DNA of 64,000 nt, taken from NCBI GenBank assembly GCA_019057385.1, contig JAHQJS010000004.1, positions 384,001-448,000 on the forward strand. The letters are read 5' to 3'. This document shows, in pieces, positions 23,851 to 41,385 of the stretch (position 1 is its first letter; the number at the start of each line of letters is the position of its first letter). Position numbers and translations under genes: made by a program. The notes beneath the pieces are model-generated. The model did not search any database. It saw only the letters and a program-made list of their open reading frames with translations, and had not been told where the DNA came from. Source of the stretch: Candidatus Borrarchaeum weybense. GTDB taxonomy: Archaea > Asgardarchaeota > Sifarchaeia > Borrarchaeales > Borrarchaeaceae.

Positions 23851-24046
23851 TCTCTATCACAACCTTAATCTTGTTTTTTCTTACTACAACGTGATGCTAT
23901 CCTAGATGGTTTCATGCTATTTCTCATATATTGTTTCTAGAATAAGAAAGTATTTATATCATAACTAGTCCATTACATATATCATGGATAGTTTCACCTA
24001 TATAAAGATATTGAAAGGAAATGCAGAAGCTTAAGAGGGATTCACA

Positions 24047-24976: not shown

Positions 24977-27900
24977 CTCTCTTTTGTGGAAAGTAACGGA
25001 CGCCAAGAGTATGAGTTCAAAAGAAAGCTTAAAAACAGCGAACTTCCAAGACATGTATCTGGTTTTAAAAGCTGTCGAAGTAAACAATTTCGGAATACAT
25101 AAGCATTTAACAATGTCCTTTGAGAAACCTATCAACTTAATTGTTGGGGCAAACGCAGTTGGAAAAACTACACTCTTAGATGCTGTTAGCATTGCTTTAG
25201 GTGGAGAGAGTGATCGCTACGGGACTCTCAAAGATTTAGTAGGTTATGTTGGACCCGCGGGAGACAAAGCTTCAGTAACAGTGTACTTGAGAAATCCGTC
25301 TAATGAGAACAAAAATCACCCACTTGTTGACTATGGAATATATACGAACTACGTGAAAGAAGAATTAAAAATTGAGGTCACAATCACCCGAGATTCAGTT
25401 TACTGGCAAGTAAATGATCGACAAAAAAAGCATGGCCGACAAGAAATTCGGAAGATGCTTCAAAGTGCAACCATTCGGATAGATATGTCTGATGAGATTT
25501 TGTTTACACGTAAAGACACGATTGATAAGTTCATGAGCGGAAGTCCTGTCGAACAGTTCCAACAAATTCTCACTTCTCTTAAACTCGCGAACTTACAGGA
25601 AGATATCCAAAACACTCAAGGTGAAGTCAAGAATTTACAAAATAAACTCCCGGAATTAGATTATCGACGGAAAAGTCTTGAGAAGGATCTTGAAGTAGCT
25701 AAACAGTTGAAAGAACAATATGAGCGAAAGTTTGACTTATTAGACCAAAAAGCAAGATTAACAAACATCTTGAACTGGATAGAGTATAATGAATGGCAAA
25801 CACGACTAATAGAGTTAGATGAGCAGACAACTCTCTTAAAAAAAGATCTTGAGGAGTTACAACACGAATACCAAGAAATAGAAACTCAATCTAAGCAAAA
25901 CAAACGAAATGAGCAGTTATTACAAGACCAGCTAAACGAGATGCAAACAAGGCTGACAGATTTAACCCGCCAAAATGAGGAGAGACTCCGAAATATCGGC
26001 TTAATAAAAGAAGATATTGCTGGGAAGGAGGCGGAACACCGTATCAAAGATCAGTACCTTCAAGAAAATGTTCAAAGACAGGAAAATTTGCAAAAAATCT
26101 ACCAAGAAGAAATTATTAAAGGCTCTCTCTTGTCATTAGAAGATTGGAAGAATTCTAAACCATTAATTGAGGAAAAAAGACGTGCACTAAAAGACTTACA
26201 GCAAAAAGATATACAGGCACTACAGACATGCAATAGCCGGTTATCACATCTTGCCACACGGATCAAGCGGTATGATACGCAGGAAAATCAAATACTCAAT
26301 GAGTTAGCTAAACTGAATCAAACTGTAACAAGTGGAACAAAATTTAATGCTGGGGAACACCATGTATTAGCACTACGCCGAGCCTTGGATCAGCTTCTTT
26401 GGGGGAAAAAAGTTACAAAACCGCTATTTCAGGAGATTTTTATAAAACCTGATGGCGAACTCTGGGAAGGAGCCATAAATCATGCGCTTGGGGGATTGCG
26501 TTCATATGTTCTAGCTAAGGATGCGGCAACAATTAATCAATTGAGAGAGTACATGGAACAGAACAATTTCAGTGTTTGGGTCGCACGTTTACCCAAAATA
26601 GCAAATATTCCAACTAGATCACTACAATCTCTTCCTGAAAACTTAAAAGATCTTATAGTAGGCTGGATTGACGATTTTTTGGAGTTTGATGATCCATTTA
26701 TTGCTACCTATCTTTTAGCGAGAACTCGCGCACTTCTGGTAAAGAGTAATGCTTCCGCCACTGAACTCTTAGAACTGGCTAAAATAACGGGCGCAGACGT
26801 GTACACTGCGCAACCCTCGGTATTTAAACCTGATGGACGCTTCCGCACGAACGTCCGAACCTCCTACTCATTAGGAAAAAGAACTGATAATATCGAGAAA
26901 GTCATAGAACTTCAAACAAAATTAGAGCACATCAAAAATGAACGCGCAAAATTAATAGACCAGCGTTTAAAGATTCTTGAAAAAAAGGCAGAGCTTCAGG
27001 ATAAGCAAGCTCAATTGCAAGAACAAATCGATGCATTACAAGATCAAATCACTCACATGGCCAAGAAGGATCCTACATCGATACTGAAATCTATTGAAGA
27101 ACTAGACAAAACGATTAAGGAGCAACATAAAGAAATTGAGCGAATAGCAGAAGAGTTAGAAAGCACTAAGACTCGATTAAAGCCATTAACAGAGAATACC
27201 TTCATTGAGGAAATTAAATACCTTAATAATGAGATCCCTAAAATTCAAGAACAGATTGGGGGATATAGAACTCACGACCAAGTTCTTGAAAATCGTTTAA
27301 TTGAATTAAAGTCAAAAATTGAAACTATGAAAGCCGAATATCAAGATATTGAAAGAGATCTAGAGCTCCGCCGCAGTAAAGTTGCACAATATAAAGAAAG
27401 CTTGGTCGATCCTGCCCCAAAACGCCTTCCACCCAAAACAAAAGTTCTGAGAGAAATTTATGAAATTGATGGTGCTGTAAATCAAATCACAGCCACTGCT
27501 TATGATGTAGAGCAGTACGAGAAACTAGAGAAATATTATCAAGAAACAGGACAAGATATTGAGAGAGTTTCACAAGCACTAGATGAAACTAGACAGCAAC
27601 TTGAAGATTACTATCAAGAATGGAAACAACGAGTCAAGTTTGTTCTTCAACAGCTTCAGGATGTGGCGAACTTTTTACTATCTCCTTTCATTCAGGTTAG
27701 ATGCTCTACAACTAATTCCTTGGATATGAAACAGATTGGTCTAAAAGTAGAGTTTACTAACAAGACGAATGGAAACGAGAAATATGAACTTTATCATGTG
27801 GCTTCCGGTGGTGAGCGTGCTTTAATCACTCAATCATTGTTCTTAGCTTTACATACGCTGAATCGAAGTTCTCCTATCCACATTGTCGATGAATTTACTC

Positions 27901-28106
27901 AACGTTTGGACGAAAAATATCGCGGTCACGCCTTTATCATGGTTAAACGCCTTCTAGAAAAACTCAAGGAAATAAACGGACAGAATGGCGGTTATAACTG
28001 GAATCTGATTCCTCAGCTCATTTTAGTTGCACCAATAGTAGTAGGAAGCTATATCCCTCCAGAAATAGATACTCAATATTTATTCAAAGTAACTAAACTG
28101 AGTTAA
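24915..28106 (+). CDS. SMC-family ATPase, SMC5/6-like
   Basis: Walker A GANAVGKT, two coiled coils around a hinge-like region, signature ASGGER, Walker B IVDEFTQRLD. Confidence 0.85.
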   Translation: MISARLKELPMDLRLKQVVYNSLLWKVTDAKSMSSKESLKTANFQDMYLVLKAVEVNNFGIHKHLTMSFEKPINLIVGANAVGKTTLLDAVSIALGGESDRYGTLKDLVGYVGPAGDKASVTVYLRNPSNENKNHPLVDYGIYTNYVKEELKIEVTITRDSVYWQVNDRQKKHGRQEIRKMLQSATIRIDMSDEILFTRKDTIDKFMSGSPVEQFQQILTSLKLANLQEDIQNTQGEVKNLQNKLPELDYRRKSLEKDLEVAKQLKEQYERKFDLLDQKARLTNILNWIEYNEWQTRLIELDEQTTLLKKDLEELQHEYQEIETQSKQNKRNEQLLQDQLNEMQTRLTDLTRQNEERLRNIGLIKEDIAGKEAEHRIKDQYLQENVQRQENLQKIYQEEIIKGSLLSLEDWKNSKPLIEEKRRALKDLQQKDIQALQTCNSRLSHLATRIKRYDTQENQILNELAKLNQTVTSGTKFNAGEHHVLALRRALDQLLWGKKVTKPLFQEIFIKPDGELWEGAINHALGGLRSYVLAKDAATINQLREYMEQNNFSVWVARLPKIANIPTRSLQSLPENLKDLIVGWIDDFLEFDDPFIATYLLARTRALLVKSNASATELLELAKITGADVYTAQPSVFKPDGRFRTNVRTSYSLGKRTDNIEKVIELQTKLEHIKNERAKLIDQRLKILEKKAELQDKQAQLQEQIDALQDQITHMAKKDPTSILKSIEELDKTIKEQHKEIERIAEELESTKTRLKPLTENTFIEEIKYLNNEIPKIQEQIGGYRTHDQVLENRLIELKSKIETMKAEYQDIERDLELRRSKVAQYKESLVDPAPKRLPPKTKVLREIYEIDGAVNQITATAYDVEQYEKLEKYYQETGQDIERVSQALDETRQQLEDYYQEWKQRVKFVLQQLQDVANFLLSPFIQVRCSTTNSLDMKQIGLKVEFTNKTNGNEKYELYHVASGGERALITQSLFLALHTLNRSSPIHIVDEFTQRLDEKYRGHAFIMVKRLLEKLKEINGQNGGYNWNLIPQLILVAPIVVGSYIPPEIDTQYLFKVTKLS

Positions 28107-28280
28107 GATCCGTAAATCTACACTTGTAGGGCTTATACGTTATTATCAAATATTGTGAAGAATAAAAAAAATATTTATTGTACATTTACATAATATGATC
28201 AAAATATGAAGACTTGAAAAATTAATGTTTCATTTTCATAATTGTACATGTTCCAGTATGACGACTATAAAGGTGACTAA

Positions 28281-31133
28281 GTGATAGAACATAAACCTTC
28301 CTCGAAGGAAACGTATCTACTAGGCATTGACTTAGGCACTACTAACACCTATGCCTGTTTATCAAAAATTCGAGATGAAAGATTATTAGATATTATTCCT
28401 ATAGGTATAACGCAACTCCGACAAAGTTTTCAGACAACTACTGACGAGTGTTTACCTTCGGTAGTTTACTTTCTTAAACAAGAAGAATTTGGTGTAAATT
28501 GTCTTGTAGGTAAAGGCGCTAAGGAACTTATTACTTCAGAACCAGAACGGGTTATCTGTTCGTCTAAAACTCACATTGGAACCGATAAAGTCTACAAGAT
28601 CAACGGGATGTCTTATATACCCCGTGATATCGCAGCAATTATTTTTGATACAGTCAGGCAGAGTGTGCAAGTATCCTCTCCAGAATATCTCCAAGGCGAT
28701 ATAATTGTAGGTGTTCCATCTCGATTTAATGCAGAACAAAAGGCAGATACTCTTAAGGCTGCAGAAAGAATATTTACGAAAGCATCAACTATCTCTTTAG
28801 TGGAGGAACCAGAAGCTATTGCTTTGTGGTATCTCCATGAGGAGATTAATACTGACAGTAAAGATACCTTTCTTAAAAAATGGTGTTTTGGAAAAAGGCG
28901 ATTTTTAGTTATAGATATGGGTGGGGGAACGTTAGATGTAGCCATTATCGAGGCGACACTACGTGACGATGTCGAATTTGATAAAGAGAATCCAAAAACA
29001 TATCCAATAGTAAAACGAATAGCAATTGGTGAATTTACTCAATGTGCAGGAGATGAATTTGACAAATTAATAGCGGAGAAACTACGCGTAGAACTTTATC
29101 CTAATCTTTCAGACGAGGAATATGAACACTACAAGCCATGTTTTCTCGAACAAGCGGAACGGATTAAGTTGGCTATTAGTCTGAAGATGCGAATGCAGGA
29201 CGCTTCCACTACGGTCCGAATACTGTTCTATTTATTAAGCACACATGAACCAAAAGAAAGCATATGGGATGTTGATAAGTACTATAACGCAGTTAAATCA
29301 CTACTTCCTCCCTCTGGCTTTACGTTTTATCATGATTATATCGAGGAATACAATCGAAAACAATGGTTGAAAACTACTATCCTTCGTCCGATTATTGATG
29401 CATATATCCAAATAGATGAGAATGAACGTCTAATTGATGGCCGTTTGTTCGATGTATTCATTCTAGCGGGCGGAATGGCTGAATTTCCCTTAATTGAAGA
29501 CATCTTTCATGAAATTTTAGGTGTTGCACCTGTTCGTCTGCGGAAGGACCCCAAGAGAGCTGTTGCTCGAGGTTTAATTGTTGAACATTATTTTGAGAAA
29601 TTTGACAGTATTTCTAAAAAAACTATCGGACAGACTTATGGCGTTAAAGTTTTTGATCGGAGCAAGCAACAGCCTGTATGGAAAAAATTTATTCGAAGAG
29701 ATGAAGAACTCCCGATCATTAAGAAAAATGTGCTTTCTGGAACATTGAGTGCGAAACAATCTAAGATCCTTTTTTCACTAGGTAAAAAACCTATAGGGGA
29801 GGAGAATTATGCACCTATCCGAGACTACTCGGTTGCATTAGATCCACCCCCAACAGAGCAAATTGCCTTCTCTCTTAATGTTTTAGTGAATGAATCTGGT
29901 GCAATTGAAATAGATGGAAAACGAGGTGATAATTGTGGGTTTATTCGGATAGGGGCATTAACAGGCGATGAAAGAGAAGAAGATTATGAGCCATTAATAC
30001 CTGAAGCGACTGATCGGAAGTTCACTCGTGAAAAACTTAACGAGTTACTTCCTAAAAAGGAATCGATAATTCGACCAAGAGAAGATAAGAGCCCTAAGAC
30101 AGTTTTAATTGAATTTAGGAAAGTTCTTGATCAAGAAAAGAAAAACAGAAGGAAACTCAGTCAACATCGTGAAGAATTTGCAAATTTAAGGAAAATTAGA
30201 AAAGCGCTCCGATCTCTTCAACAGAGTTACAGAAATAGATTTGGAGATCTTAAGAAACTCAAACATAATATAGCCACAAAAAATGTCTGTTTTGATGAAC
30301 TTCGAGAATACGTCCTTCTATTTGGTGATATTGTTAAATCGCATGTTCAGCGTAATGAGCCATGGAAACTTGACCAATTAACTGCATCTATTATCGCTGA
30401 TTTGACGGAAGTGATTCTAGAATATGGTCTACGTGGTGAAGTGCTATTTTCTTTAATGAGGCTCATTAGATATGTTATTCTCAAAATTCCAACTTTCCAG
30501 CCACCTAGATTCCAAGATTTGATTGATTTCGCCTTAGAAGAAAGTGGTAAATGGACTGAAGAGGTTTACTACGCCTTAAGTTTGATGGCAAATCCTTCAT
30601 CTTATCTTATCGACAAAATTATTTTTGCCCTCACATCAAAATACGGATTTAGTGCACTTCATGCCCTAGGCTTGTTTGTTAGACGACAAAATGAAACACA
30701 AAGTTATGATTTTCCAACTATACAAACTATTTGGGTGACTCTTCTTCATTTATTCACAAAAATAATTGAAGATGCTCCCTATGAAATTGAATTACCTCCA
30801 CTCAGCTCTGATATTATAGCCAATAGCAGATTTCAATCAACTAAATTTGACAATTTAAGAAAGAACGAGACATTTCTAGAAAAACTCTTCTTTATATTGG
30901 CTTACTTCGTGAAAAGTGAAGTTGATCTGCCCGAAAAACAGCGATATCCTGAAATGCTCAGAATAATATTTAACAGCAATGAATTACCAGAGATGCTTCA
31001 CTATCAGATCCAATTATGCCTGTACTGGTACGAAGGACAAAAATTCTTAGAAGAAATCGATGCTCGGGATGAAGAATTAGAGACCCAGGAAATAAGTAAT
31101 AGGATTATTGAGTATTATCTCCAAATTAACTAG
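28281..31133 (+). CDS. Divergent Hsp70-like protein with helical C-terminal extension
   Basis: GIDLGTTN, VGVPSRF, EEPEA, IDMGGGTLD, LAGG motifs; C-terminal third unlike DnaK. Confidence 0.85.
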   Translation: MIEHKPSSKETYLLGIDLGTTNTYACLSKIRDERLLDIIPIGITQLRQSFQTTTDECLPSVVYFLKQEEFGVNCLVGKGAKELITSEPERVICSSKTHIGTDKVYKINGMSYIPRDIAAIIFDTVRQSVQVSSPEYLQGDIIVGVPSRFNAEQKADTLKAAERIFTKASTISLVEEPEAIALWYLHEEINTDSKDTFLKKWCFGKRRFLVIDMGGGTLDVAIIEATLRDDVEFDKENPKTYPIVKRIAIGEFTQCAGDEFDKLIAEKLRVELYPNLSDEEYEHYKPCFLEQAERIKLAISLKMRMQDASTTVRILFYLLSTHEPKESIWDVDKYYNAVKSLLPPSGFTFYHDYIEEYNRKQWLKTTILRPIIDAYIQIDENERLIDGRLFDVFILAGGMAEFPLIEDIFHEILGVAPVRLRKDPKRAVARGLIVEHYFEKFDSISKKTIGQTYGVKVFDRSKQQPVWKKFIRRDEELPIIKKNVLSGTLSAKQSKILFSLGKKPIGEENYAPIRDYSVALDPPPTEQIAFSLNVLVNESGAIEIDGKRGDNCGFIRIGALTGDEREEDYEPLIPEATDRKFTREKLNELLPKKESIIRPREDKSPKTVLIEFRKVLDQEKKNRRKLSQHREEFANLRKIRKALRSLQQSYRNRFGDLKKLKHNIATKNVCFDELREYVLLFGDIVKSHVQRNEPWKLDQLTASIIADLTEVILEYGLRGEVLFSLMRLIRYVILKIPTFQPPRFQDLIDFALEESGKWTEEVYYALSLMANPSSYLIDKIIFALTSKYGFSALHALGLFVRRQNETQSYDFPTIQTIWVTLLHLFTKIIEDAPYEIELPPLSSDIIANSRFQSTKFDNLRKNETFLEKLFFILAYFVKSEVDLPEKQRYPEMLRIIFNSNELPEMLHYQIQLCLYWYEGQKFLEEIDARDEELETQEISNRIIEYYLQIN

Positions 31134-31199
31134 ACTTGAGATATCATCACTAGAACAAGAAGATTTTAGGCAAAGTTATTAGTCTATAAAAATTAATGC

Positions 31200-31970
31200 T
31201 CAAATCTTAAGAAGATCCGAACGCACCGTAAAATATTTTTTGCGAGGATTATCCACATTAAGATGAACCAGTTTCTCAATCGCAAAGGTTTTCATATATT
31301 TATCAAAATACTCTTTTGGTAGAAGAAGAATTGGACAGTGCATCTCATAAGCCCCTTCTTTCTTTTTATCTATAACTTCTCCTTCCTCGATTTTGAGCTC
31401 AATTTGACGTGCCAGTGATTTTAAATACTTTAGAAGAGTTTCTCGTCTGCAATACTCGGGAAATCTCATTGGTCGTTCACTAATAACTTCAGGAAGATTG
31501 CTTGATAAAAATTGTGAAATTTCACGAATTTTTTTAACACAATTCTCTCCTAGAGGTGTAAGAGTATTGTTTTGGGAAGAAAAAAGTTGTTCCACACGTC
31601 CCTTTGGATCCTTTCCGATATATTTGTAAACTAAATTAGGTTTGACATTGCGTATTATACCCCAACAGAATAATTGCACTTTTCGCACTTTCAATAATTG
31701 AAAATCTTCCTTAGTCCAAGAATCAAAAACTTCTAAGGCGTCTAATCCAATTTTTCGTATTGTACATCTCTGAACGCCTGCTTCCTTCACAATCAAACCC
31801 ATGTCTTTGAGTAACTTAACCGCGCTATACGCAAATTTACCTTTTGGAAAATATACTGTTCTTTCAGCGTCACTTTCATTAATAGATTCAGCGTCTCTTA
31901 GATAACAGAGAACCTCAATAACATCTTTTCGATCAAAAATCCGGATCATTAAAACTTCGTCCATAGCCAT
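31200..31970 (-). CDS. Hypothetical protein, N-terminal winged-helix-like region
   Basis: VKLLKDMGLI...TIRKIG pattern. Confidence 0.45.
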   Translation of the reverse strand: MAMDEVLMIRIFDRKDVIEVLCYLRDAESINESDAERTVYFPKGKFAYSAVKLLKDMGLIVKEAGVQRCTIRKIGLDALEVFDSWTKEDFQLLKVRKVQLFCWGIIRNVKPNLVYKYIGKDPKGRVEQLFSSQNNTLTPLGENCVKKIREISQFLSSNLPEVISERPMRFPEYCRRETLLKYLKSLARQIELKIEEGEVIDKKKEGAYEMHCPILLLPKEYFDKYMKTFAIEKLVHLNVDNPRKKYFTVRSDLLKI

Positions 31971-32527
31971 TCCTCACTATCATTTTCAATTATTTCACTC
32001 CTTGCCATCCGCCCCATCTTTTGTGAGGATTTGCAAACTGTAATTTTCTTTTGCCCAGTTTATCTCATTCATCCAACTACATGAAGTTACAACTAAATAA
32101 ATATGCAAAGTAGATAAAAGGCATAACTATTAATCAGGTCTATGATTATTGTTTATCCTTCATATAGTGCATGAAATCTACTTTACTTGAGAGAGACTGC
32201 AATAAAACTGTGAAAGTGGTTTTTTGTAGTTTTTAACTACTATCTTGCTACGATTTTGCTTTTAGTGAGAGCTCGTATAGATTCAATTAATGAAAATAAC
32301 GATCTCAAATTTATGACAAACTCGATCGAACATGGTGAAGATTCTAGGAAAACGCTGAAAACATGCTAATGGTGATCTACTGAACGATCACAAGTGAGAT
32401 TTGCGCGGATAAACGAGTGGAATCGAAAAGTATACTACAAAGGTTAACCTTAAGGATCCAATTTGAGTATATATATACTTGAATTCACAAATGAAATTAC
32501 ATAAATATACTTGAAGAATGTGATAAA

Positions 32528-32842
32528 ATGGCTGTAAATGATGTAATAATGGATAAAATATTATGTATGGTGTACCATTGGCAAGATGCTTATCCCAGTA
32601 TATCTGAATTAAATAAGAGATTCGAAATAAAAAATATGGAAACAATTGAAGCAGATAGGGAGATATGGGAAAGAATATTAAAATTACAGGCTAAAAAATA
32701 TGTAGAAATCAAAAGACCTCTTATTTCCATAACAAATCATGGCATTAACTATCTAAATAAAAAATATCCAGAACTTGCTGAGCGAAGTATAAAAGAATGC
32801 CTTTTTGTAACTTGCAAAGATTGCGATATGTTAAGCTCTTAA
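32528..32842 (+). CDS. Small winged-helix protein
   Basis: ILKLQAKKYVEI....ISITNHGINYL pattern. Confidence 0.55.
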   Translation: MAVNDVIMDKILCMVYHWQDAYPSISELNKRFEIKNMETIEADREIWERILKLQAKKYVEIKRPLISITNHGINYLNKKYPELAERSIKECLFVTCKDCDMLSS

Positions 32843-33051
32843 TTTTGAATATTCTTTGAGCAATGCCTCTTATTCTAAATAATTTGAAAGACCGCAGAGT
32901 GTTTAATATGCGCCTCAAGTCGCTTGACTAGTTAGTGTCCTATGATTATTAAACAATAAACTGGTTTATTTGTTCAGTTTTTTCAATTTGTTCCTGCTGG
33001 TTGATTAAAGGTAATTTTTTGAGTATACGAGGACAAAGGTTTTTGATGATT

Positions 33052-33299
33052 AATTTGTGTCTAAAAATAGAGATTTAAGAAAAACTAGAAGGAAAATTAC
33101 GAAAAAAGGTTATGTGTGTCTTAGATTTGTGGAAATAGAATTGATTAGAATTGAGAAAAATGAATATACTAAAATTAAAATGATCTTTGTCAAAAAATGA
33201 CTAATCAGAAATGAGAATAAGAATTTGTGTCTAAAGAGAAAAAATAGAGCAGGAAATTTAAGATAATTAATTTTTGGACAATTTTTTTAGACACAAATT
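33052..33299. repeat. Cluster of 14-bp AATTTGTGTCTAAA repeats
   Basis: Direct copies at 33052-33065 and 33222-33235, inverted copy at 33286-33299, degenerate copy near 33112-33125. Confidence 0.75.
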
Positions 33300-33429
33300 G
33301 AAGGTCTTTTTCATTTGCCCTGTTCAAGTGTTGAAAGATCGTATTGGGCAAAACCATTATCTACTAGGTGTTTGCGTTGTGGATACCAAATCCTTACGCC
33401 TTTTATAAATAAATTTCCAACCATTTTGT

Positions 33430-35133
33430 ATGATCACAATGCCACATATATTGGGATGGTATTCGGTATGGGAACGGTTGGGACGAGCAGGTTATCTAAA
33501 GTTATTTGCTTTTCAGTATAAGGCGGTTTATGCATTCAGGGATGGAAAAGATATATTTGTAAAAGCACCAACGGGTGCAGGAAAGACGCTCATTCCGCTG
33601 ATTTGTGCTACTCTTATTCTTGGAATGAAAAAACGATGTGTGTTCCTTGTACCGACCAGGCGGTTGATCGACCAGACCTATGACCGACTCAAAGACTGGT
33701 TTGAAAGTATACCACATTGCGAAGAAGAGTACAATATCGTAACCTTAACAGGAGATAATCGACCTTCTTACAAAGAAATACGAGAAGTGCACATAATCAT
33801 AACAACCTACGAGTCTTTTAATGGTATGTTGGCAAAACATTACAGACATTCACTTTTGAACAATGTCGGACTTGTGGCGATTGATGAAATGCATTATGTC
33901 GGGGATGTAGAGAGAGGGACGCATCTTGAGGAGGCTATTGTCAAAGCGAAGTTGTGGTTGCGACCTCGTCCTCAGATGATCTACCTTGCGGCTACGTTAG
34001 GGAATATACAAGAAATTGGGGAGTGGTTAAAAGCTACAGTCATCGAAACAAAAAAACGCAAGTCGGAAATCATTGTTGGATCACCCATTAACGTCTATAA
34101 TGAGGATGAACGGTTAAAGGTTATTGCTCAGTTAGTTAAAGAAACGGATCAGATAGAGATAGGGGCAAAGGAAACTGACAAAAGATGTGTGCTGGTTTTT
34201 TGTAGATCGAGATGGCATGCCGAAACTAGAGCACAGAATCTTGCAAAAATGTTGGAGAAGGAAGGATACAAAAAAACTGTTTCATATAGCCACAGAGGAC
34301 TGAAAACTGTGGAACGACAAAAGCGGATGAAAGCGTTTCAAAAGGGTGAAATTGACGTGTTGTTCACCACAACAGAATACAAGGAGGGTGTGAATGCTCC
34401 AGTCCTGCGGGTCATCATAGCTGATACCGAGGTGTTCAATTCTCAGGACATTGAACAGATGATCGGAAGGGCAGCCCGTCCGCGATTTTTTCAGATCGGA
34501 TATGCAAATCTGATTATTCAGGGAAACATAGAAGACATTCTCGAAAATAAAAGAATAAGGATAGAGGAAGGGGTAGCCCATTTTGAGGAATCACCATTGG
34601 AAAGTTGGGCAAAATATCATTTGAACGAGATCATCCTCAACAGGTTAGCTAAGGGTGCCTGTTCGATAGGTCGGCTTATTAGGTATCTCAAAGAGTTTTA
34701 TTTTTACTTCGAGGATACAACTCAGATAAAGAATTGGTATAAAGTTATGGAAAACGCAATAAGTGAACGAGAGATGTTTATGCTTACCGCAGACAACTAT
34801 ATGATACTCTTCTCTTTAATAGATAATGACGATAGATACAATGCGAAGGATAAGAAGAACTTTCACTCTTTCGTAACTGAATTCCTGATGCGTAGTCGCA
34901 AGTGCGCTGAAACACAAAAAAGAAGGCGTAAAAGGGATAAAAAACTCGTACTTGAAAAGAAGATGGCTCTTGTTTTCTTGAAAGAATACTTAACTAATAA
35001 ACTAAAACGTTATGATGCTGAGCTAAAAACTCAAGTTAAAACTCATCTAGGCTACCTCATCCATATTGGGTTTCTTAAAAAACAGGAACTGGAATCTAAG
35101 GCAATAAAGGAAGGATTAGGAAGTGCAGTCTAA
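33430..35133 (+). CDS. Ski2/Hel308-like SF2 helicase (N-terminal part of a split helicase-Cas1 gene)
   Basis: APTGAGKT, DEMH, LAAT, HRGL, QMIGRAARP; ends midway through the winged-helix domain. Confidence 0.88.
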   Translation: MITMPHILGWYSVWERLGRAGYLKLFAFQYKAVYAFRDGKDIFVKAPTGAGKTLIPLICATLILGMKKRCVFLVPTRRLIDQTYDRLKDWFESIPHCEEEYNIVTLTGDNRPSYKEIREVHIIITTYESFNGMLAKHYRHSLLNNVGLVAIDEMHYVGDVERGTHLEEAIVKAKLWLRPRPQMIYLAATLGNIQEIGEWLKATVIETKKRKSEIIVGSPINVYNEDERLKVIAQLVKETDQIEIGAKETDKRCVLVFCRSRWHAETRAQNLAKMLEKEGYKKTVSYSHRGLKTVERQKRMKAFQKGEIDVLFTTTEYKEGVNAPVLRVIIADTEVFNSQDIEQMIGRAARPRFFQIGYANLIIQGNIEDILENKRIRIEEGVAHFEESPLESWAKYHLNEIILNRLAKGACSIGRLIRYLKEFYFYFEDTTQIKNWYKVMENAISEREMFMLTADNYMILFSLIDNDDRYNAKDKKNFHSFVTEFLMRSRKCAETQKRRRKRDKKLVLEKKMALVFLKEYLTNKLKRYDAELKTQVKTHLGYLIHIGFLKKQELESKAIKEGLGSAV

Positions 35134-37468
35134 GGTAATAAAGAACGGGAAATATAGCGTAACAGAAACTGGACAATGGGCAAGTCAATTTCTATTAAAG
35201 ACCAGCGATGCAAAGAAGATCCACAAATTTCTCCAGACACAGTATTTTTATTCAGAAGACGACGCTTGTAAAAAACTGGCGACTCTTATAAGTGAGAGTG
35301 TCCGTGAGAACGATAATTCGCGATATAGAGCGCAACAATATGAGTTGTTCATATTATCTTTAGTAGAAGGGTTCGATATTGATGAGGCAGCGGAAAACGC
35401 TCGGATGCGACAAGGGGATGCCGAAGGGTGCAGAAGAACTGCCGCGTGGATTGCAGAGGCAGTTAATGCCTACGTTGGAAAGAACATTCCGAAGATCGCG
35501 GAAATGGCAGAAGGAATTAGTGAAGCGCTTACCGTAGATAAAAGAAGGGAAATAGGACCTGGGGTGCGAAGTTATGCAAAAGAGAAACCCTCGTCATATC
35601 CAGGTATTCAAAAAACAATTTGTTCTGTTATTAATCAATTAGGAATTTGCACATATGATGCGATCCATAACATAATTACTGACAAATATGGTGAGTCAGT
35701 AGATCGAACGACAACAATTTGGAACATCCTTGATTTAAGGGCGAAAGACGAAGTTATAACTTTATCAAGAGGCAAGGGAATAGGGCGTCCCGTAATCCAT
35801 GTGTGTAAAAAGGGAATGAATGTACCTGAACATATGCGCAAGACTTGCGGATCCTGTGTATTTTACATATCCTGTGACGATGATGAAAAAGAACGAGACA
35901 ATCAAAGATTTATCTGTGAACTGCGAAGGGAATGCAACAAGCGCGTGGAAAAAAATATTGTAAGCACGTACGTTACGAGCAATATGGGTGCGTGTAAATA
36001 TCATAATTCGTCTCAAGAGCGAAAAAGACGAAGTTTTCGTAAATTTGAGAGGACAGACACAGGCAAACCTATCTGCCAAATTTGTAAATCGGATGCCGTT
36101 AAGGAACCAACCGCTTATGATCACTACACCATATGTTCCAATTGTAATTCACAGTATTACTACCTTTGCGACGGCAGGTTCAGTGTTCAGCCAGGTGTCA
36201 GAGATTTATTACAGCAAGCATTAGAAGAAATCTATGGAAAGTCCGTTAAACCTGTTAAAAGGTGTGCAAAACTAGAGGGTTCTTTAGATCGGCAATACGT
36301 TGAATTAACCATTAAGAAAGGGGATGCAGCTCATATTGACCAAAATAAACTCATTTATATTCCAAAAGAGGAGAAGACACGTTCTTATTTGTTAGATGCC
36401 ATTGAATGTGTTAGAGTGCTTGACGGTGCATATATCACGCCTTATGTATATGAGAAACTCGATGACAGAATTTTATCTGGCAAGAATGTGAATAGACCGC
36501 CAAACGCTTCCTTTGAAGGGTATATAAACATACCTGACGTGCACAATCAACTGAAAGAACGTATACAAGAAATTCGAGAGCAAGAAGTTGGTTTGGCATT
36601 GGCGAGGATACTTATAATGGGTAAGAAAATGAATAATGCAATTCTTACTCTGCAAGCTGGTGAGGAGGGATTACTGTGCCCAGTAGATGCCAGCAGGTTA
36701 TTTTTCAAACAAATGAATGTTGTCGCCCATACTATCATGTATTGGACGGGAAATAGAGAAAATCTGCTCAGTTTCGAGGCGGTTGGCGAACGATACGCAT
36801 GGAAAGCAATTAAACGCGCCTTGAAGGATACATCTATGCGCTTTGAAAATCGTACACAGGAACGATATATCTTTTCGGTTCCCTATATCGGCAAAGTTAG
36901 GGCACGATCTCCCTTTAGTGCAGGACTTAATGCCATTTATCGCCGTGTCCTCGAAATATGTAGAGAGGTGCTTTGCGAAAAAGGATTCTCTTGGTTTCCT
37001 GGCGAACTCGTACTCCATTATAGAAGAAGAAAAGACCAACAAATCCCCATTGGAACAGCTCTTGATTTCCGAGAGTTGTTTTTGGCACTGTTCAGATTCA
37101 CTTATATGAAAGCGTGCAAGAAGGATCAAATTAGGAATACAGATTTTGTACTGTCAAGTACATCTCGCGAGGAAAAAGTATATACCCTTACATACGAGGC
37201 AGAGGATAAAGTTAGAGACTTAATCGAAAGCGTCATGAATAAAGAGGTATATTATCTTGGAAAACAGATGTCACTTTGGAAAGCAATGAAAGAATGCGCA
37301 CGTTCACTTCGCAACTTTTTATTAGAGGGATCTAAATTTATTCCTTTTGTCTGCGCATTAAATGAGGAGCAATTTAAAAAGATTTTAAAGACTTTCCAAA
37401 ATATAGAGAGGTTTTGTGGACCTTCAGGTAAAGGACCTCCTGTTTCAATGTTTGATATCTTATCATAA
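35123..37468 (+). CDS. cas1: Hel308 C-terminal domains + HTH + Cys-rich Zn fingers + Cas1 integrase domain
   Basis: N-term YSVTETG..AS and GDAEG...AAWI (Hel308-like); several CxxC motifs. C-term Cas1 pattern LLSFEAVGERYAW...RSPFSAGLNAIY...VLHY...ALDFRELF, with the E/H/E catalytic positions present. Confidence 0.8.
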   Translation: MQSKVIKNGKYSVTETGQWASQFLLKTSDAKKIHKFLQTQYFYSEDDACKKLATLISESVRENDNSRYRAQQYELFILSLVEGFDIDEAAENARMRQGDAEGCRRTAAWIAEAVNAYVGKNIPKIAEMAEGISEALTVDKRREIGPGVRSYAKEKPSSYPGIQKTICSVINQLGICTYDAIHNIITDKYGESVDRTTTIWNILDLRAKDEVITLSRGKGIGRPVIHVCKKGMNVPEHMRKTCGSCVFYISCDDDEKERDNQRFICELRRECNKRVEKNIVSTYVTSNMGACKYHNSSQERKRRSFRKFERTDTGKPICQICKSDAVKEPTAYDHYTICSNCNSQYYYLCDGRFSVQPGVRDLLQQALEEIYGKSVKPVKRCAKLEGSLDRQYVELTIKKGDAAHIDQNKLIYIPKEEKTRSYLLDAIECVRVLDGAYITPYVYEKLDDRILSGKNVNRPPNASFEGYINIPDVHNQLKERIQEIREQEVGLALARILIMGKKMNNAILTLQAGEEGLLCPVDASRLFFKQMNVVAHTIMYWTGNRENLLSFEAVGERYAWKAIKRALKDTSMRFENRTQERYIFSVPYIGKVRARSPFSAGLNAIYRRVLEICREVLCEKGFSWFPGELVLHYRRRKDQQIPIGTALDFRELFLALFRFTYMKACKKDQIRNTDFVLSSTSREEKVYTLTYEAEDKVRDLIESVMNKEVYYLGKQMSLWKAMKECARSLRNFLLEGSKFIPFVCALNEEQFKKILKTFQNIERFCGPSGKGPPVSMFDILS

Positions 37469-37703
37469 ATACAATTCACTTTTTGCTCTCTTTTTCGACT
37501 TGGATTAATTTAGACCATCAACCTCTTCCTTTTGGTTCTCTAAGAAATGCTTCTTCTTGGTGAAAAACCTAACTAAGAATAAATTTGATTCAATGTTTAT
37601 TTAAATGAAAAGAAGAACAAGAAAGGTTTTTTCCTCCATCTCCAAAGACATAGATAAAAACGTTACTAGATCGCTTATTTTTACAAAAGGAGTTCATAAA
37701 ATA

Positions 37704-37750
37704 ATCCGTTATACAAAAAGCGTTATTTAAAAACCGCAATGCTTATATAC
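37704..37750 (+). promoter_or_regulatory. Promoter region of the cas7-like gene; putative target of guide 1
   Basis: TTATATA at 37743-37749, ~34 bp before ATG 37783; 44/47 identical to 38771-38817. Confidence 0.7.
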
Positions 37751-37782
37751 TCGGTTGCAAAGGTATATTTGAGGTTTTCAAA

Positions 37783-38598
37783 ATGAAAAAAACTAAGAAA
37801 CAGATCAATGTTCATGCCTTCACTCCTATTGCGAAACCGATCAATACCTCCATACAGAAAAATTCCACTATGCTTCTTTTGGGAGAAATTCCGTATGTCA
37901 ATGGATCGAAAACATTTACTACCAAGCTGTATTATCTCAAAGGTTTGCGAGGAATGCTGAGGCATGCCTGCATGGACTTAGCACGTGCTTACGATATCGA
38001 GGTCTGTCACAGTTCTGAAAAGACTGAACTCAGGGATGGGACAAAACTCGTCTCGCAAGGGTTTCATCCGCTGGGTGCCTGTGATCCTCCCTGCATTCTG
38101 AGGCGTATCTTCGGTACGTTCAGAGAAGACTCCCGCATTAGTGTTTCCGCCGATCCCATCACTTCTATCAGCCATAAGGAATACATTACCGAAGTTCCCG
38201 TCCAAAAAGTTCATATCGCCAGTGAAAATAGGATTGCTCTTTCCTATGACAGGATCCCCATACAAGACTTTAGACAATCCTATTTTTCAGGTTACTTTAC
38301 CTTTTCCATTGATGCCACCCAATTGACCGATGATGAGATTAAATTTCTCTTGGAATCGCTGTTGCATATAGAGTACTATGGTGGTGGCAGAAGTGCGGGC
38401 TATGGTCATGTCAAAATTCTAAATGTTGAATTGCTGCACATAACAATCGAAAGAAAATTTGAATCTGAGAACGGAACTCTGAAAGTCGTTGAAGAGGAAA
38501 AAGTAACTCCGCTAGAACTTGATACTCTCGATGACTGGACGGAAAGTATATCCCTATCTGCACTGACACAAGAACTAGAATTGATGGATGGGGAGTGA
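37783..38598 (+). CDS. cas7: Cas7/Csm3-like RAMP protein
   Basis: KGLRGMLRH, C..C..RRIFG, ENRIA, C-terminal G-rich loop GGGRSAGYG.V. Confidence 0.85.
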   Translation: MKKTKKQINVHAFTPIAKPINTSIQKNSTMLLLGEIPYVNGSKTFTTKLYYLKGLRGMLRHACMDLARAYDIEVCHSSEKTELRDGTKLVSQGFHPLGACDPPCILRRIFGTFREDSRISVSADPITSISHKEYITEVPVQKVHIASENRIALSYDRIPIQDFRQSYFSGYFTFSIDATQLTDDEIKFLLESLLHIEYYGGGRSAGYGHVKILNVELLHITIERKFESENGTLKVVEEEKVTPLELDTLDDWTESISLSALTQELELMDGE

Positions 38599-38648
38599 AA
38601 AAGATGTTGAATAACCTGCAATACTCGTTATTTCCTTTTTTCTCATCT

Positions 38649-38851
38649 AAGACGGAATGCTTCCCTTGTAGCGAGGGGAGCACGTTCTTGTGCATGAGAC
38701 TGAACCATCTTGGAGGTCTGACGCCTCGTCTCATGGGGATGGATGACAGGCAGGGGACGAGAAAAGTCACATCCGATTTACAAAAAGCGTTATTTAAAAA
38801 CCGCAATGCTTCTATACAATTAATATGCCCGTTATAACATTGATAACGGGC
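38649..38851 (+). ncRNA. Putative guide RNA 1: scaffold 38649-38770, variable segment, 3' hairpin 38827-38851
   Basis: Scaffold homologous to 39758-39875 with compensatory stem changes. Variable part matches 37704-37750. Hairpin gcccgttat-N7-ataacgggc. Confidence 0.7.
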
Positions 38852-38875
38852 TAAAATCTATAAATAGGGATAAAG

Positions 38876-39691
38876 ATGACACAAAATTGGTTTAAATTGA
38901 TAGGAATCACCAAAACGCCTGTGATCACAAGAAGAAGGCGGTTTTTCTATAAATTAGGAGTAATCTCCATTCATGGTCGCCCCAGAGTCTTCGGTAAACT
39001 CACAAAAGGGGAAAGACGCCCACCTAAGACGTATAGGGCGTGGTATGGTGACGTCGAGTTTATCGTGCCAGAAGACAGACTTGACGACGCGCTCGCCATT
39101 GATTGTTTCGGGAGTTTCACTAATGAAGGCATGGGACAAATGCAATGGAAAGAAGCGAAAAAACTCTACAAAAAACCCCTCTATACTCCGAGAAAAGCCA
39201 AGATCAGAAAAATGCTTCCGAAACTTTCAGAGACGCAAGAAAAACTATTAATAGGTTTTTTACTTCATGATTTTGTCCATACCGAAAAACACAACAGCAA
39301 AATCTATACCGAGGTTAATATATATGATGGATTTGTCTATGAATTGGCTAAAAATCATCATAATTACACGATAGACGATAGAGAAATCCCTTTGCTCTGT
39401 ACTCTTCAATATTACGATAGGCTTTCTTCAAGAATCTCAAGAAAATTCCGCTTTTCTGCGTCCTCACGCTATCGCGTCACTGAAATAGAAAAAATAGATT
39501 TCGACGAACTTAAACAGGAGATCGAAACGCGCCAATATTCCCTATACGCGCTTTATAGTTATGTCTATAAGTCTCAGACACTCAATAAAATCAACGAAGC
39601 ACTCAAATTCGGTTTTTCATCGCTAAAAAATCATCTCTTATTAATGGTTAACCTGTATATTGATGACTCACAAGAGGCTATATACTTATGA
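38876..39691 (+). CDS. Small RAMP (Cas5-like) fused to an HD nuclease-like domain
   Basis: KTPVIT first strand, G-rich loop FGSFTNEGMGQM, then LLHDFVH...NHH...YDRLSS (Cas10/Cas3-type HD pattern). Confidence 0.65.
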   Translation: MTQNWFKLIGITKTPVITRRRRFFYKLGVISIHGRPRVFGKLTKGERRPPKTYRAWYGDVEFIVPEDRLDDALAIDCFGSFTNEGMGQMQWKEAKKLYKKPLYTPRKAKIRKMLPKLSETQEKLLIGFLLHDFVHTEKHNSKIYTEVNIYDGFVYELAKNHHNYTIDDREIPLLCTLQYYDRLSSRISRKFRFSASSRYRVTEIEKIDFDELKQEIETRQYSLYALYSYVYKSQTLNKINEALKFGFSSLKNHLLLMVNLYIDDSQEAIYL

Positions 39692-39720
39692 CACGAGAAA
39701 CTCTCGTTTTGAATAGTGGC

Positions 39721-39730
39721 GTTTATATAG
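39721..39730 (+). promoter_or_regulatory. TATA box for guide RNA 2
   Basis: GTTTATATAG ~28 nt upstream of the conserved scaffold start. Confidence 0.55.
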
Positions 39731-39757
39731 GTCTTTGCAAGCGAATATACAAGTTAC

Positions 39758-39957
39758 AAGGCGGAATGTTCCTCGCATCACGCGGAGAACACGTTCTTGT
39801 GCATGAGACTGAACCTGAGAGGTCTGACGCCTCGTAGAAGGGAATGAATGACAGGTAGGGGACGAGAAAGGTCAAAAAACAAGTGGTGTATGCGATAAAG
39901 TGGACGTGTACCAAAAAGTAATATATAAACGATGGAGGGCTCATTTGAGCCCTTTTT
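39758..39957 (+). ncRNA. Putative guide RNA 2: scaffold 39758-39875, segment matching the integration site, terminator-like hairpin
   Basis: Second scaffold copy; 39881-39914 matches the reconstructed empty DUF362 site at 28/34. Confidence 0.72.
39936..39957 (+). terminator. Hairpin plus T-run
   Basis: agggctc-attt-gagccct followed by tttt. Confidence 0.6.
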
Positions 39958-40014
39958 ATCTATTTAAAAACTGAGTTTTCCCGCCGATTTGGTCAAAAAT
40001 ATAAAACTGATATT

Positions 40015-40311
40015 TATGATAAAGTGGATGTGTATGAAGGTGGAACTTGTCAATATTGCAAGGCAATCGTCAAAACCGCGCTACAATCTCTACACAAGAA
40101 AGGAGACATTTCGCTAGTCAAAGATATGCAAGTTATTGTTGGTAAAAACCCTTCCGAGCCATATTCGAAATCAAGTTTAGATTTTATTGTAGGCGATTGC
40201 GCATGTGAATCGACAGATTACGAGGGTATTGAAATTCCTGGTTGTCCACCCTTTGACGCTTTCGTAAAAATCAGAAAAGCAGTGCACAACAATGTTTCTG
40301 AGAAAACATAA
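40015..40311 (+). pseudogene. Displaced 3' end of the DUF362 gene (attR-like)
   Basis: YDKVDVYEGGTCQYCK...SEKT is homologous to the C-terminus of 10277-11596; no 5' part. Confidence 0.85.
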
Positions 40312-40428
40312 TTTTCTTAAGTATAGTTCTAAATTGTCACTCGATTCATAAGTCAAATTTTCAAATATTCATCCATCAATTACACAATCGATCTAGTAAA
40401 GTTCGATTAAAAGGAAAAGGGGAGTTAA

Positions 40429-41172: not shown

Positions 41173-41385
41173 AATGATTATGTTCTTCAATATCACGACA
41201 GAAGTTCCTCAAGTATTTCAGGAAAATTCAGATTTTCTGCGCCATTATTCAGAGAACACTTTCTTGTGAATTAAACTGAACTTAAAAGGTCTAACGCCTT
41301 ATAGAGGTTCATAATAAAACGAAAAGTTAAATTCTATACCTTTAAAATAGCTTGTATACAAATAATGAAAAAAGAAGGAAGATGG

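Follow-up and report, generated by a model that had tools for sequence, protein, structure and literature searches.

The window, the whole stretch of 64,000 nucleotides analysed here, holds a 28.7-kb insertion (11302..40016) that is missing from the sister genomes G050 and G041; all features discussed below lie on the forward strand. At its left (attL) side stands an intact DUF362 gene (10277..11596; Pfam DUF362, 1.2e-48), whose final ~295 nt, from about 11290-11302, are an island-borne replacement of the gene's 3' end, and at its right (attR) side lies the displaced original 3' end (40017..40311). The two form a direct repeat of 298 nt with 79.5% identity (the DUF362 end at attL versus 40016-40311), and the attR copy is 95% identical to the empty site of G050, as against 85% for the attL copy. 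The unoccupied site is contiguous in contigs G050:C57 and G041:C97; in the former, the DUF362 gene runs straight into the equivalent of 40038-41305 of the window at 95% identity, which bears out the island with an att junction proposed in the original prediction. This part of the window (~11302-40016) is thus an integrative element with an ARAMP (Asgard RAMP) system as its right-end module. The cargo comprises TIR/RNase III/Argonaute genes, an HD protein, an SMC-like system and an Hsp70-like protein. Among the island ORFs tested, Pfam detects neither an integrase nor a transposase, in keeping with the initial reading that none other than Cas1 could be recognised, and several of these ORFs have no match at all.

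The gene set at the right end is that of the published ARAMP system, an array-less CRISPR derivative (Makarova, Wolf, Shmakov, Liu, Li and Koonin, 2020, CRISPR J 3:156, as summarised in PMC8730458 and PMC12669027), and is not new; the same summaries agree with the statement in the original prediction that array-less RAMP modules are known from Asgard archaea. All parts of the predicted gene order are in place, with the exception that helicase-Cas1 is divided between two ORFs in this copy: the N-terminal part, a Hel308/Ski2-like helicase (33430..35133; Pfam DEAD 2.7e-30, Helicase_C 7e-16), and a 781-aa ORF (35123..37468) with a C-terminal Cas1-like domain at residues ~400-750 (PADLOC Cas1, 2.4e-10). 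The latter scores 7.3e-7 against TIGR00287, under that model's cut-off, whereas two paralogues, D and F, score above the Pfam Cas_Cas1 cut-off; its predicted fold (pLDDT 64) retrieves Cas1 (4n06, 7.8e-11) and a casposase (6opm, 9.5e-11) in Foldseek searches. The split is a frameshift caused by an imperfect ~34-nt tandem duplication near 35095-35160, and paralogues B, D, E and F encode helicase-Cas1 in a single ORF of 1329-1337 aa. The frameshift in the window copy counts against the guide-based reading of the element given below.

Next come a 271-aa Cas7/Csm3-like RAMP (37783..38598; Pfam RAMPs 27.8 bits, cut-off 22.1; PADLOC Csm3 1.3e-10), with 11 paralogues in the genome, and g2, a RAMP-HD protein also of 271 aa (38876..39691), in which a small RAMP-like domain bearing a glycine-rich loop at the N-terminus precedes a C-terminal HD domain. 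Across 22 homologues of g2, the HD-type His/Asp residues H131, D132, H139, H161, H162, D181 and H253 are invariant; in its structural model (pLDDT 84), the N-terminal domain gives Foldseek matches that are weak (E 0.02-0.2) and consistently to Csm3, Cmr1, Cmr3 or Cas6. Modelling of the RAMP with RAMP-HD supports a complex of the two (ipSAE 0.68, best control 0.00; among solved complexes 58 of 80 attain this mark, among mismatched pairs 2 of 110), with at least 77% of contacts agreeing between runs, partner pLDDT of at least 61 and a predicted interface on residues 6-95 of g2; the Cas7/Cas5-HD-type complex envisaged at the outset is thereby backed. This modelling pass may reflect resemblance to solved Cas7-Cas5 contacts. 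As was also anticipated, the window has neither a CRISPR array nor cas2, the genome's sole array and its canonical cas1 and cas2 lying ~270 kb away.

Two copies of an RNA scaffold of ~125 nt accompany these genes, one internal (38642..38775; R1, 131.2 bits) and one terminal (39751..39880; R1, 133.8 bits). The scaffold is a structured RNA: 97.4% of cells are paired, a value matched by 0 of 500 shuffles and to be compared with 42-54% in slid controls, compensatory changes occur at 9 pairs, and its G-U pairs are compatible with the encoded strand only. Each copy is followed by a variable segment (tail 1 and tail 2, respectively) and a hairpin, the arrangement originally described. The terminal RNA has a candidate promoter of its own, a TATA box (39722..39729) ~34 nt upstream of the scaffold, where the motif GGYGTTTATATAG recurs at equal distance in loci A, D, E and F (A being the element of the window, the other letters further loci in the same genome), and its likely 3' end, as read from the sequence, is a hairpin followed by a T run (39934..39958); loci D, E, F and J share the layout of segment, hairpin and T- or pyrimidine-rich run. 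In metagenomes, R1 matches 19 loci; in all of them the scaffold accompanies g2, shares its strand, and g2 is at least 65% identical. Among 150 genomes sampled from the phylum, the scaffold was detected in 5; together with the present genome, these represent only two genera. This range is narrow against the wider one reported for ARAMP and counts against a guide function.

Tail 1 (38771..38817), which precedes a hairpin (38827-38851) and the start of g2, is a near-copy (44/47) of the upstream element and TATA box of the RAMP gene (37704..37750), confirming the claimed match to the element's own promoter. The pair has a counterpart in each full locus, and tail and promoter covary in four lineages. 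Tail 1 may steer the complex to the RAMP promoter for autoregulation, though this is uncertain: the match in the predicted autorepression holds, but tail 1 coincides exactly with the expected place of the next gene's promoter and leader, and an old tandem duplication combined with a common regulator accounts for it no less well than a guide. We give even odds to this alternative for tail 1, in which 38771-38817 is the promoter/operator of the RAMP-HD gene and resembles the RAMP promoter through a duplicated scaffold-promoter-gene unit and a common regulator particular to the locus, such as the DNA-binding portion of helicase-Cas1. It accords with the position of tail 1, 59-105 nt upstream of the g2 start with a leader hairpin and ribosome-binding site next, with the continuation of the likeness to the RAMP upstream region into a scaffold-end-like motif, with promoter-type differences common to loci B, C and G, which indicate common descent, and with locus I, which has neither the internal scaffold nor the matching element. 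Yet in locus I the two genes are only 30 nt apart, so that g2 needs no promoter of its own there; the TATA box is mutated in the tail 1 copies of A, B, C, G and F and intact in the RAMP promoters; identity between tail and promoter is 0.79-0.94 within loci (four sequence groups) as against a mean of 0.57 and a maximum of 0.70 between groups; and the divergent locus G050:C9 has such a pair as well.

The module is mobile and multicopy. The genome carries 6 full and about 5 partial copies with 26 scaffolds; the insertion sites of A, C, D, E, F, I and J are unoccupied in sister genomes, which have many lineage-specific insertions of their own, at least 8 of them at sites empty in the present genome. 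Homology among paralogous modules runs from the helicase promoter precisely to the last nucleotides of the terminal scaffold, its 3' end. The smallest insertion, locus E (6.9 kb, with an 8-nt duplication at its flanks), codes only for helicase-Cas1, RAMP and RAMP-HD; therefore, the module itself is the mobile unit, and Cas1 is its sole recognisable integrase-type enzyme. The modelled Cas1 fold, with a casposase among its top matches, counts in favour of guided insertion. Target-site duplications differ between loci (8 nt at E, none apparent at I) and no terminal inverted repeats were seen in the elements, both of which count against it. Also against it, elements A and D bear replacement copies of the interrupted gene end, a classical signature of site-specific recombinase elements; for these larger islands, a recombinase among the match-less ORFs, or one working in trans, is possible.

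The terminal RNA carries in tail 2 (39881..39914) a guide-like 34-nt near-copy of the unoccupied DUF362 target, as had been claimed: it matches the reconstructed empty site at 28 of 34 positions and the alleles of G020 and G050 at 25/30 and 26/34, respectively, and none of 3000 random windows does as well. The same holds at other loci. In all five resolvable cases with a scaffold, a 7-9-nt linker, a 30-38-nt segment and a hairpin, the segment copies host DNA that lies at the right junction or straddles it (A 25/30 and 26/34, D 29/35, E 31/32, F 27/31, J 36/38), each match, made against sister-genome empty sites, beating all 3000 random windows; a sixth, at locus L133 on a metagenome contig, matches 26/32 at +350 nt. 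At the remaining resolved loci the scaffold ends 1-8 nt from host DNA, so that the host flank itself follows the scaffold. For about half of the guide-plus-hairpin tails (three in G050:C9 and those of K, M, H, L032 and L138/L143), no target was identified. These tails count against the guide-based reading. Overall, the data support the view that the variable segment of the terminal RNA is a portable copy of the integration target, a rule across loci and not a one-off.

The segments stand alone, the sequence to either side being unrelated. In coding targets their mismatches fall at codon wobble positions (in tail 2, mostly at third positions), and the mismatch pattern has no 6-nt register. At A and D, segment and target differ by 17-22%, mostly at wobble positions, as against 5-8% between the flanks and G050; at E and J, the segment is closer to the sister genome's empty site than to the adjacent occupied copy. 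They therefore arrived with the element rather than arising at the site. This bears directly on an unlikely alternative in which the copies are functionless by-products, namely junction duplications from repeated or nested hot-spot insertions (long target-site duplications, tandem small scaffold fragments), the scaffold being merely the element's end sequence, a 3'UTR or a terminator element. Solo scaffolds and arrays do exist (locus C has a 208-nt mini-insert, G050:C9 holds four scaffolds, and in G031 paired scaffolds are spaced by 27-40 nt), and partial scaffold 3' ends abut the target at E and at A, where the extreme right end (39991..40016; repeat D6) consists of a scaffold-end-like GGTCAAAAA and then a degraded copy of the target's left half. 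A decayed remnant also adjoins the window's element: a g2-like 3' end with a degenerate scaffold (41184..41342; repeats D1 and D7; R1 23 bits, E 0.0016), downstream of a ZIP transporter gene and present in G050:C57 too. But fresh duplications would be nearest the adjacent target, which the copies are not, those of A and D representing a different allele with wobble-type differences and those of E and J fitting the sister genome's site better; segment length (30-38 nt), register and the subsequent hairpin are constant across unrelated sites, and the scaffold has RNA-type covariation. Distinctly unlikely is a role of the copy as DNA, an attP-like homology arm for another recombinase or host recombination with ARAMP and its RNA as defence or regulatory cargo at the element end: the replacement gene ends of A and D, as in classical integrase elements, the island ORFs lacking a family assignment and the treatment of ARAMP as a probable defence system (PMC8730458) speak for it, but the 6.9-kb element E has no space for a further enzyme, a single crossover at the copy predicts target-like sequence at both ends and the left junctions lack it, and a DNA arm needs neither the scaffold always 7-9 nt before the copy nor the terminator hairpin after it.

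That the RNA tail copies the insertion site suggests instead that ARAMP picks its insertion site by single guide RNAs, and we put the probability that such scaffolded guides specify integration or homing slightly above even, at about 0.55. The terminal RNA, made up of its apparent own TATA box, scaffold, 7-9-nt linker, 34-nt target copy and terminator hairpin, would be loaded into the complex of the Cas7-like RAMP and RAMP-HD as a fixed single guide, recognise the chromosomal target and bring the element there; helicase-Cas1 might then integrate it, or the HD domain might cleave empty sites with homing to follow. The guide has the sense orientation of the host genes; since this precludes pairing with their mRNAs, it would need a DNA target. 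Action on DNA is unusual for type III-like RAMPs, which counts against the reading. We infer here the expression and loading of the RNA, the enzyme behind the chemistry and the causal direction. Of the mechanism originally proposed, the part concerning the insertion site gains from the target-copy rule, the mobility of the module and the modelled RAMP/RAMP-HD pair, while the autorepression half is weaker.

Several known systems offer partial parallels. Natural single guides that autoregulate cas operons include the long-form Cas9 tracrRNA (Workman et al., 2021, via PMC8730458) and cr-like RNAs (PMC10120712); similarly, tail 1 would partly match the promoter of its own effector gene. The guides described in these sources derive from CRISPR repeats or tracrRNA, whereas the tail 1 match is 47 nt with a TATA box and is confounded by the promoter of the next gene. 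Casposons share a Cas1-family enzyme as the likely integrase (6opm being among the best fold matches) and site-specific insertion in or beside genes; unlike them, the present elements show no family B polymerase or terminal inverted repeats and have RAMP proteins and an RNA, and the duplication is 8 nt or none as against 14-15 nt.

The CASTs (Tn7-like, with type I-F, I-B or V-K effectors and homing guides) are likewise mobile, with a nuclease-poor CRISPR-type effector, a dedicated guide matching the attachment site beside the element end and defence genes as cargo. Here, in contrast, TnsA/B/C and TniQ domains were not seen, the integrase candidate is a helicase-Cas1 fusion, the RAMPs resemble those of type III, and the putative guide sits on a 125-nt structured scaffold and not between CRISPR repeats; the CAST target lies ~50-65 bp from the element, whereas here it abuts or spans the junction. 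In OMEGA systems (IS200/IS605 and IS607 with TnpB or IscB and right-end or omega RNAs), a structured RNA gene also overlaps the element end. In many ARAMP copies the 3' end of the scaffold is the element end, so that target DNA of the flank comes next, as it does with the right-end RNAs of TnpB, and a comparable role in homing or retention is plausible by this analogy. The differences are that the proteins here are RAMPs, an HD domain and Cas1 with no RuvC-type nuclease, that the guide segments are 30-38 nt, and that a second architecture has an internal portable target copy and a terminator.

The closest relative is ARAMP itself, with which the element shares an Asgard host, a nuclease alongside diverged Cas7-like and Cas5-like RAMPs, a distinct Cas1 homologue and the lack of a CRISPR array. 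Summaries of that system term its mechanism enigmatic and note that some Asgard Cas1 homologues may accompany mobile elements (PMC8730458, PMC12669027). They name no RNA component, guide or insertion-site logic, and we found no published description of the scaffold, whereas the present element has an RNA with a target copy. To the published gene set, our observations add a multicopy mobile module with lineage-specific insertions, a minimal unit of 6.9 kb and a folded RNA with a target-copying tail.

By its gene content, the module at 33430-40038 is ARAMP, an already known system, which PMC8730458 and PMC12669027 describe as array-less, type III-derived and found in Asgard archaea; the former adds that its distinct Cas1 renders the mechanism 'even more enigmatic'. 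The locus combines a Cas7-like RAMP, a second RAMP with a nuclease and a distinct Cas1 homologue in an Asgard host, its homologues bearing the names Promethearchaeota, Sifarchaeia or Borrarchaeum in their source records. The original prediction that the module lacks both a CRISPR array and cas2 was borne out by a genome-wide repeat scan and a Pfam search for Cas2, which found neither in the locus; the only canonical array of the genome (about 49 repeats), accompanied by cas1 and cas2, lies about 270 kb from the window (G000:C4:148434-154842), and its repeat is unrelated to the scaffold RNA of the module.

Four ORFs in one orientation make up the protein-coding part of this region. The first encodes a Hel308/Ski2-like helicase (33430-35133; DEAD 2.7e-30, Helicase_C 7e-16) and the second a 781-aa protein with a C-terminal Cas1-like domain (35123-37468; PADLOC Cas1 2.4e-10; TIGR00287 7.3e-7, under its cut-off). 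Neither this ORF nor a four-sequence profile gave a meaningful sequence match to PDB chains, and only fold comparison was informative: a model of residues 380-781 (pLDDT 64) matches the A. fulgidus Cas1 (4n06, 7.8e-11) and a casposase (6opm, 9.5e-11) in Foldseek searches. The predicted gene set of helicase-Cas1, RAMP and RAMP-HD is confirmed with one amendment: the helicase and Cas1 form a single ORF of 1329-1337 aa in four paralogous loci of the genome (B, D, E and F), and at the window locus (A) a frameshift, brought about by an imperfect tandem duplication of about 34 nt near 35095-35160, separates them into ORFs of 567 and 781 aa. The locus A copy may be disabled or made as two polypeptides. 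The third ORF is a Cas7/Csm3-like RAMP (37783-38598; Pfam RAMPs over its cut-off, PADLOC Csm3 1.3e-10), and the fourth, g2 (38876-39691), which matches no family, is recognizable as a RAMP-HD protein by its HD-type residues, invariant in 22 homologues (H131, D132, H139, H161, H162, D181 and H253), and by a RAMP-like fold. The fold matches of its N-terminal ~100 residues are weak and uniformly to RAMPs (Csm3, Cmr1, Cmr3 and Cas6; E 0.02-0.2), being compatible with a Cas5-, Cas6- or Cmr3-like domain alike. A model of the complex of RAMP and RAMP-HD reached an ipSAE of 0.68 against 0.00 for the best control; in calibration, 58 of the 80 solved complexes attained this mark, as did 2 of the 110 mismatched pairs, and the runs share at least 77% of their contacts, with a partner pLDDT of at least 61. 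The modelling supports the binding of the two proteins to each other, and its result may echo the solved Cas7-Cas5 contacts.

The two conserved scaffold RNAs foreseen in the original prediction are present, each about 125 nt long, one after the RAMP gene (38642-38775, internal) and the other after g2 (39751-39880, terminal). There are 26 copies in the genome. The 22 aligned copies adopt a common fold of two hairpins, the first with seven covarying pairs, and a long-range helix; 97.4% of all cells are paired, and the observed covariation was reached by none of 500 shuffles. Sliding the partners by 1-3 columns lowers the pairing to 42-54%, and several G-U pairs are compatible with the gene strand only. 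A TATA box about 34 nt upstream of the terminal scaffold is conserved in loci A, D, E and F. The RNA matches no Rfam family; neither Rfam at gathering thresholds nor a tRNA scan matched anything in the window. Its covariance model, which the original prediction had proposed to build, matches in each of the genus's four other genomes and in a single further genus of the class; under strict filters, the remaining 145 genomes sampled from the phylum gave no match. Among metagenome contigs fetched via g2 it matches 19 loci, invariably on the g2 strand and with a g2 at least 65% identical, and none of the loci with g2 at 30-47% identity. A distant RAMP-g2 pair of this genome (G000:C5:80663-82259; 37-40% identity) has its genes back-to-back, with a scaffold detected neither between them nor nearby. 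In sister genomes, short runs of 2-4 scaffold units spaced 27-130 nt apart (L118, G050:C9, 1294-3023; L119, G031:C73, 1181-1487; L120, G031:C176, 4694-4984), some units of which have a tail and a hairpin of their own, resemble miniature arrays whose structured 'repeat' is 130 nt long. At locus F, an additional scaffold-tail-hairpin unit is inserted precisely at the boundary of scaffold and tail.

The module is mobile. A tblastn search of the genome recovered six full modules (A-F), three RAMP-g2 pairs, one RAMP-only copy and several remnants, the homology of the paralogues extending from the helicase promoter to exactly the 3' end of the terminal scaffold. In a sister genome (G050:C57), the DUF362 gene runs directly into the equivalent of window 40038-41305 at 95% identity; since that contig is contiguous across the site, ~11302-40016 is a 28.7-kb insertion. 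The left end of this island carries its own copy of the last ~295 nt of the DUF362 gene, the displaced host copy lying at 40017-40311. The insertion at locus E spans 6.9 kb and codes for helicase-Cas1, RAMP and g2 only; those at D and F span 10.4-10.6 kb and those at C, I and J 5-11 kb, with D, E and F bearing additional DNA on the left, upstream of the helicase. Conversely, sister genomes have at least eight insertions for which the equivalent site in this genome is free of a scaffold. For loci B and H no clean empty site was found, the sister genome having a remnant or other DNA there.

Element E is bordered by an 8-nt duplication, and at I no duplication is evident; a comparison of the right flank with the 70 kb upstream of each locus found direct repeats only at A, and a gene-end duplication of 113-128 nt at D, absent from that scan, was revealed by the sister genomes. 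By eye, elements E, D, F and C showed no terminal inverted repeats, and no common left-end motif was seen across the compared elements. Consistent with the original prediction, in which no other integrase or transposase was recognized in the island, Pfam found no tyrosine or serine recombinase and no DDE transposase in the window island or the F cargo, though several ORFs had no match. The cargo of the window island (12148-31133) looks like a defence island: one operon encodes a TIR protein, a small unassigned ORF, an RNase III and a long Piwi-domain Argonaute, beside an HD protein, a 950-aa protein with an Hsp70-like N-terminus, and five unassigned genes on the minus strand, which face an AAA+ ATPase and an SMC/Lamassu-like ATPase of 1063 aa. 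A decayed g2 3' end with a scaffold (41184-41342) is located downstream of the ZIP transporter gene; G050 shares it, so that an older ARAMP insertion dates from before the two genomes diverged, and the neighbourhood has been struck at least twice. Three further repeat families of ~320 nt, ~350 nt and ~1.6 kb (L075 14119-14437 and 5933-6286; L078 6430-8026), which recur on many contigs of every genome in the genus, probably represent MITEs and an insertion sequence.

Each scaffold is followed by a tail. That of the internal copy (38771-38817) is identical at 44 of 47 positions to the upstream element of the RAMP gene, TATA box included (37704-37750), and this pairing recurs in every full locus and in a divergent one on G050:C9. 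Within a locus the identity of the pair is 0.79-0.94 (four sequence groups), as against a mean of 0.57 and a maximum of 0.70 between groups, and five of seven loci have a mutated TATA box in the tail copy. The tail fits a guide that would target the system's own promoter. At roughly equal odds, it may instead be a duplicated g2 promoter: it sits where the promoter and leader of g2 are expected, its likeness continues into a motif resembling the scaffold end upstream of the RAMP promoter, and close paralogues share the features by which the two promoter types differ. The predicted match is upheld, and a guide and a duplicated promoter would explain it about equally well.

At five loci, the tail of the terminal copy is a near-copy of the insertion site. 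At these loci, A, D, E, F and J (class II), the scaffold is followed by a 7-9-nt linker, a 30-38-nt segment, and a hairpin plus T- or pyrimidine-rich run, 100-400 nt before the junction, and each of the five segments reproduces the right junction's host sequence in its empty-site state. At A the segment (39881-39914) matches 28/34 positions of the reconstructed site, 25/30 of the G020 allele and 26/34 of that in G050; at D it matches 29/35, in ftsY codons starting exactly at the junction; at E 31/32, beginning where the 8-nt duplication ends; at F 27/31, from the junction; and at J 36/38, immediately upstream of the start codon of the next gene, whose first residues read as dihydroorotate-dehydrogenase-like. 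Every one of these scores is above the best achieved by 3000 random windows of the genome, and a sixth case comes from a metagenome contig (L133; 26/32, target 350 nt downstream). Each copy stands alone between stretches of unrelated sequence. Those of A and D differ from their targets by 17-22%, mostly at codon third positions, against a divergence of only 5-8% between the flanks and G050; hence these copies represent a different allele imported with the element. Those of E and J are closer to the sister empty site than to the adjoining occupied copy (E: 31/32 vs 26/32).

That such copies are junction duplications without function is unlikely, in light of the gene content of element E, their fixed register behind a structured RNA and the allele pattern of the segments; the same three points also weaken a DNA-level homology arm, which is slightly less likely. 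Two other ideas were rejected: a 6-nt mismatch register, as mismatches fall in every residue class and, in A and D, at codon third positions; and old flanking DNA from a previous site, as the sequence past the copy is unrelated to that past the target. The occupied targets are more diverged from the segments than the sister empty sites are, with three amino-acid changes at E (C3:~91560-91590), a scrambled left half at A (40000-40016) and a 6-nt deletion at J (C3:66020-66065), which could be escape from self-targeting or chance. In class I (two instances at C, loci G and I, and the majority of the insertions in sister genomes), the scaffold ends 1-8 nt from host DNA, often right before a start codon; recombination between the segment copy and the adjoining target would turn class II into class I. 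The scaffold 3' end (AAGGTGAT) often lies 8-12 nt ahead of a host-gene ATG (L050, L051, L056, L042, L161, L184, L186 and G000 locus C), examples being genes with first residues like those of acyl-CoA dehydrogenase and GlmM, and a GIY-YIG gene. It occupies the expected position of a ribosome-binding site, and the element may give transcription and translation signals to the host gene.

We favour, at a probability of about 0.55, the reading that the scaffold and its tail form a putative fixed single guide within a RAMP/RAMP-HD complex. The guide would set the location of insertion, either with helicase-Cas1 performing the integration or by homing after the HD domain has cut empty alleles, a route analogous to that of TnpB in IS200/605. 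Several observations count against it. Tails K, M, H, B, L032, L138/L143 and three in G050:C9 have no match in the genome or flanks searched; the rule that a tail matches its own insertion site holds for A, D, E, F, J and L133, and for about half of the guide-like tails no target was found. Guide and host genes read in the same sense, so that the guide would need to act on DNA. Further, the Cas1 gene of locus A is frameshifted, duplications are inconsistent, inverted repeats were not seen, and the gene ends are replaced as is typical of recombinase elements. More tentatively, ARAMP may be a new type of self-mobile RNA-guided integration system, in which a type III-derived complex would be loaded with a non-CRISPR guide (a structured 125-nt handle, a 30-38-nt 3' guide and a terminator), bind a chromosomal DNA site and recruit helicase-Cas1 to insert the element alongside, with up to ~22 kb of defence genes as cargo, a second guide silencing the system's own promoter. 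The RNA-guided integrative element originally predicted is partly supported: the mobile module, the target-copy tail and the modelled RAMP/RAMP-HD contact speak in favour; the self-promoter half has roughly equal odds with a duplicated promoter.

Since 2019-2020, ARAMP and the related HRAMP of haloarchaea have posed a puzzle, having CRISPR-type RNA-binding proteins without an array and therefore no known RNA, together with a Cas1 that lacks an obvious integration substrate. The present observations furnish a candidate RNA, a mobile module and a testable rule, namely that the sequence past the scaffold is the insertion site, making an 'enigmatic' system amenable to concrete experiments. Elements with defence cargo are polymorphic among the species of one Asgard genus and are therefore apparently one of the major sources of its genome variation. 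Should the rule stem from RNA-guided Cas1 integration, it would be the first instance of Cas1 as an RNA-guided transposase and a third independent union of CRISPR effectors and transposition; it would open a new path to programmable DNA insertion, bear on the interplay of CRISPR adaptation enzymes and effectors with mobile elements, and offer a possible model for the first meeting of Cas1-based elements and RNA-guided effectors.

As far as checked, the scaffold RNA and its target-matching rule are undescribed: the literature searched on ARAMP, HRAMP, Asgard Cas1 and RNA-guided casposons yielded no description of an ARAMP RNA, and the accounts of the system in PMC8730458 and PMC12669027 mention none. 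Class 1 CRISPR-Cas systems draw crRNAs from a repeat-spacer array, whereas the module in the window has none. With casposons the module shares a Cas1-family integrase fold (Foldseek 6opm, 9.5e-11), but terminal inverted repeats and a 14-15-bp duplication like theirs were not seen in the elements examined, and a family B DNA polymerase is absent from the scanned island ORFs and would have no room in the 6.9-kb element E. It differs from the Tn7-like CASTs in that Pfam scans of the island ORFs found no TnsB, TnsC or TniQ, the AAA+ and SMC-like ATPases of the island being part of a separate gene cluster. From the OMEGA systems (TnpB/IscB) it is set apart by the absence of a RuvC-type nuclease from the module in Pfam and PADLOC scans; yet it shares with them a structured RNA at the element end with the flank as its guide part, at C, G, I and at least eight sister-genome insertions, a resemblance in logic rather than homology.
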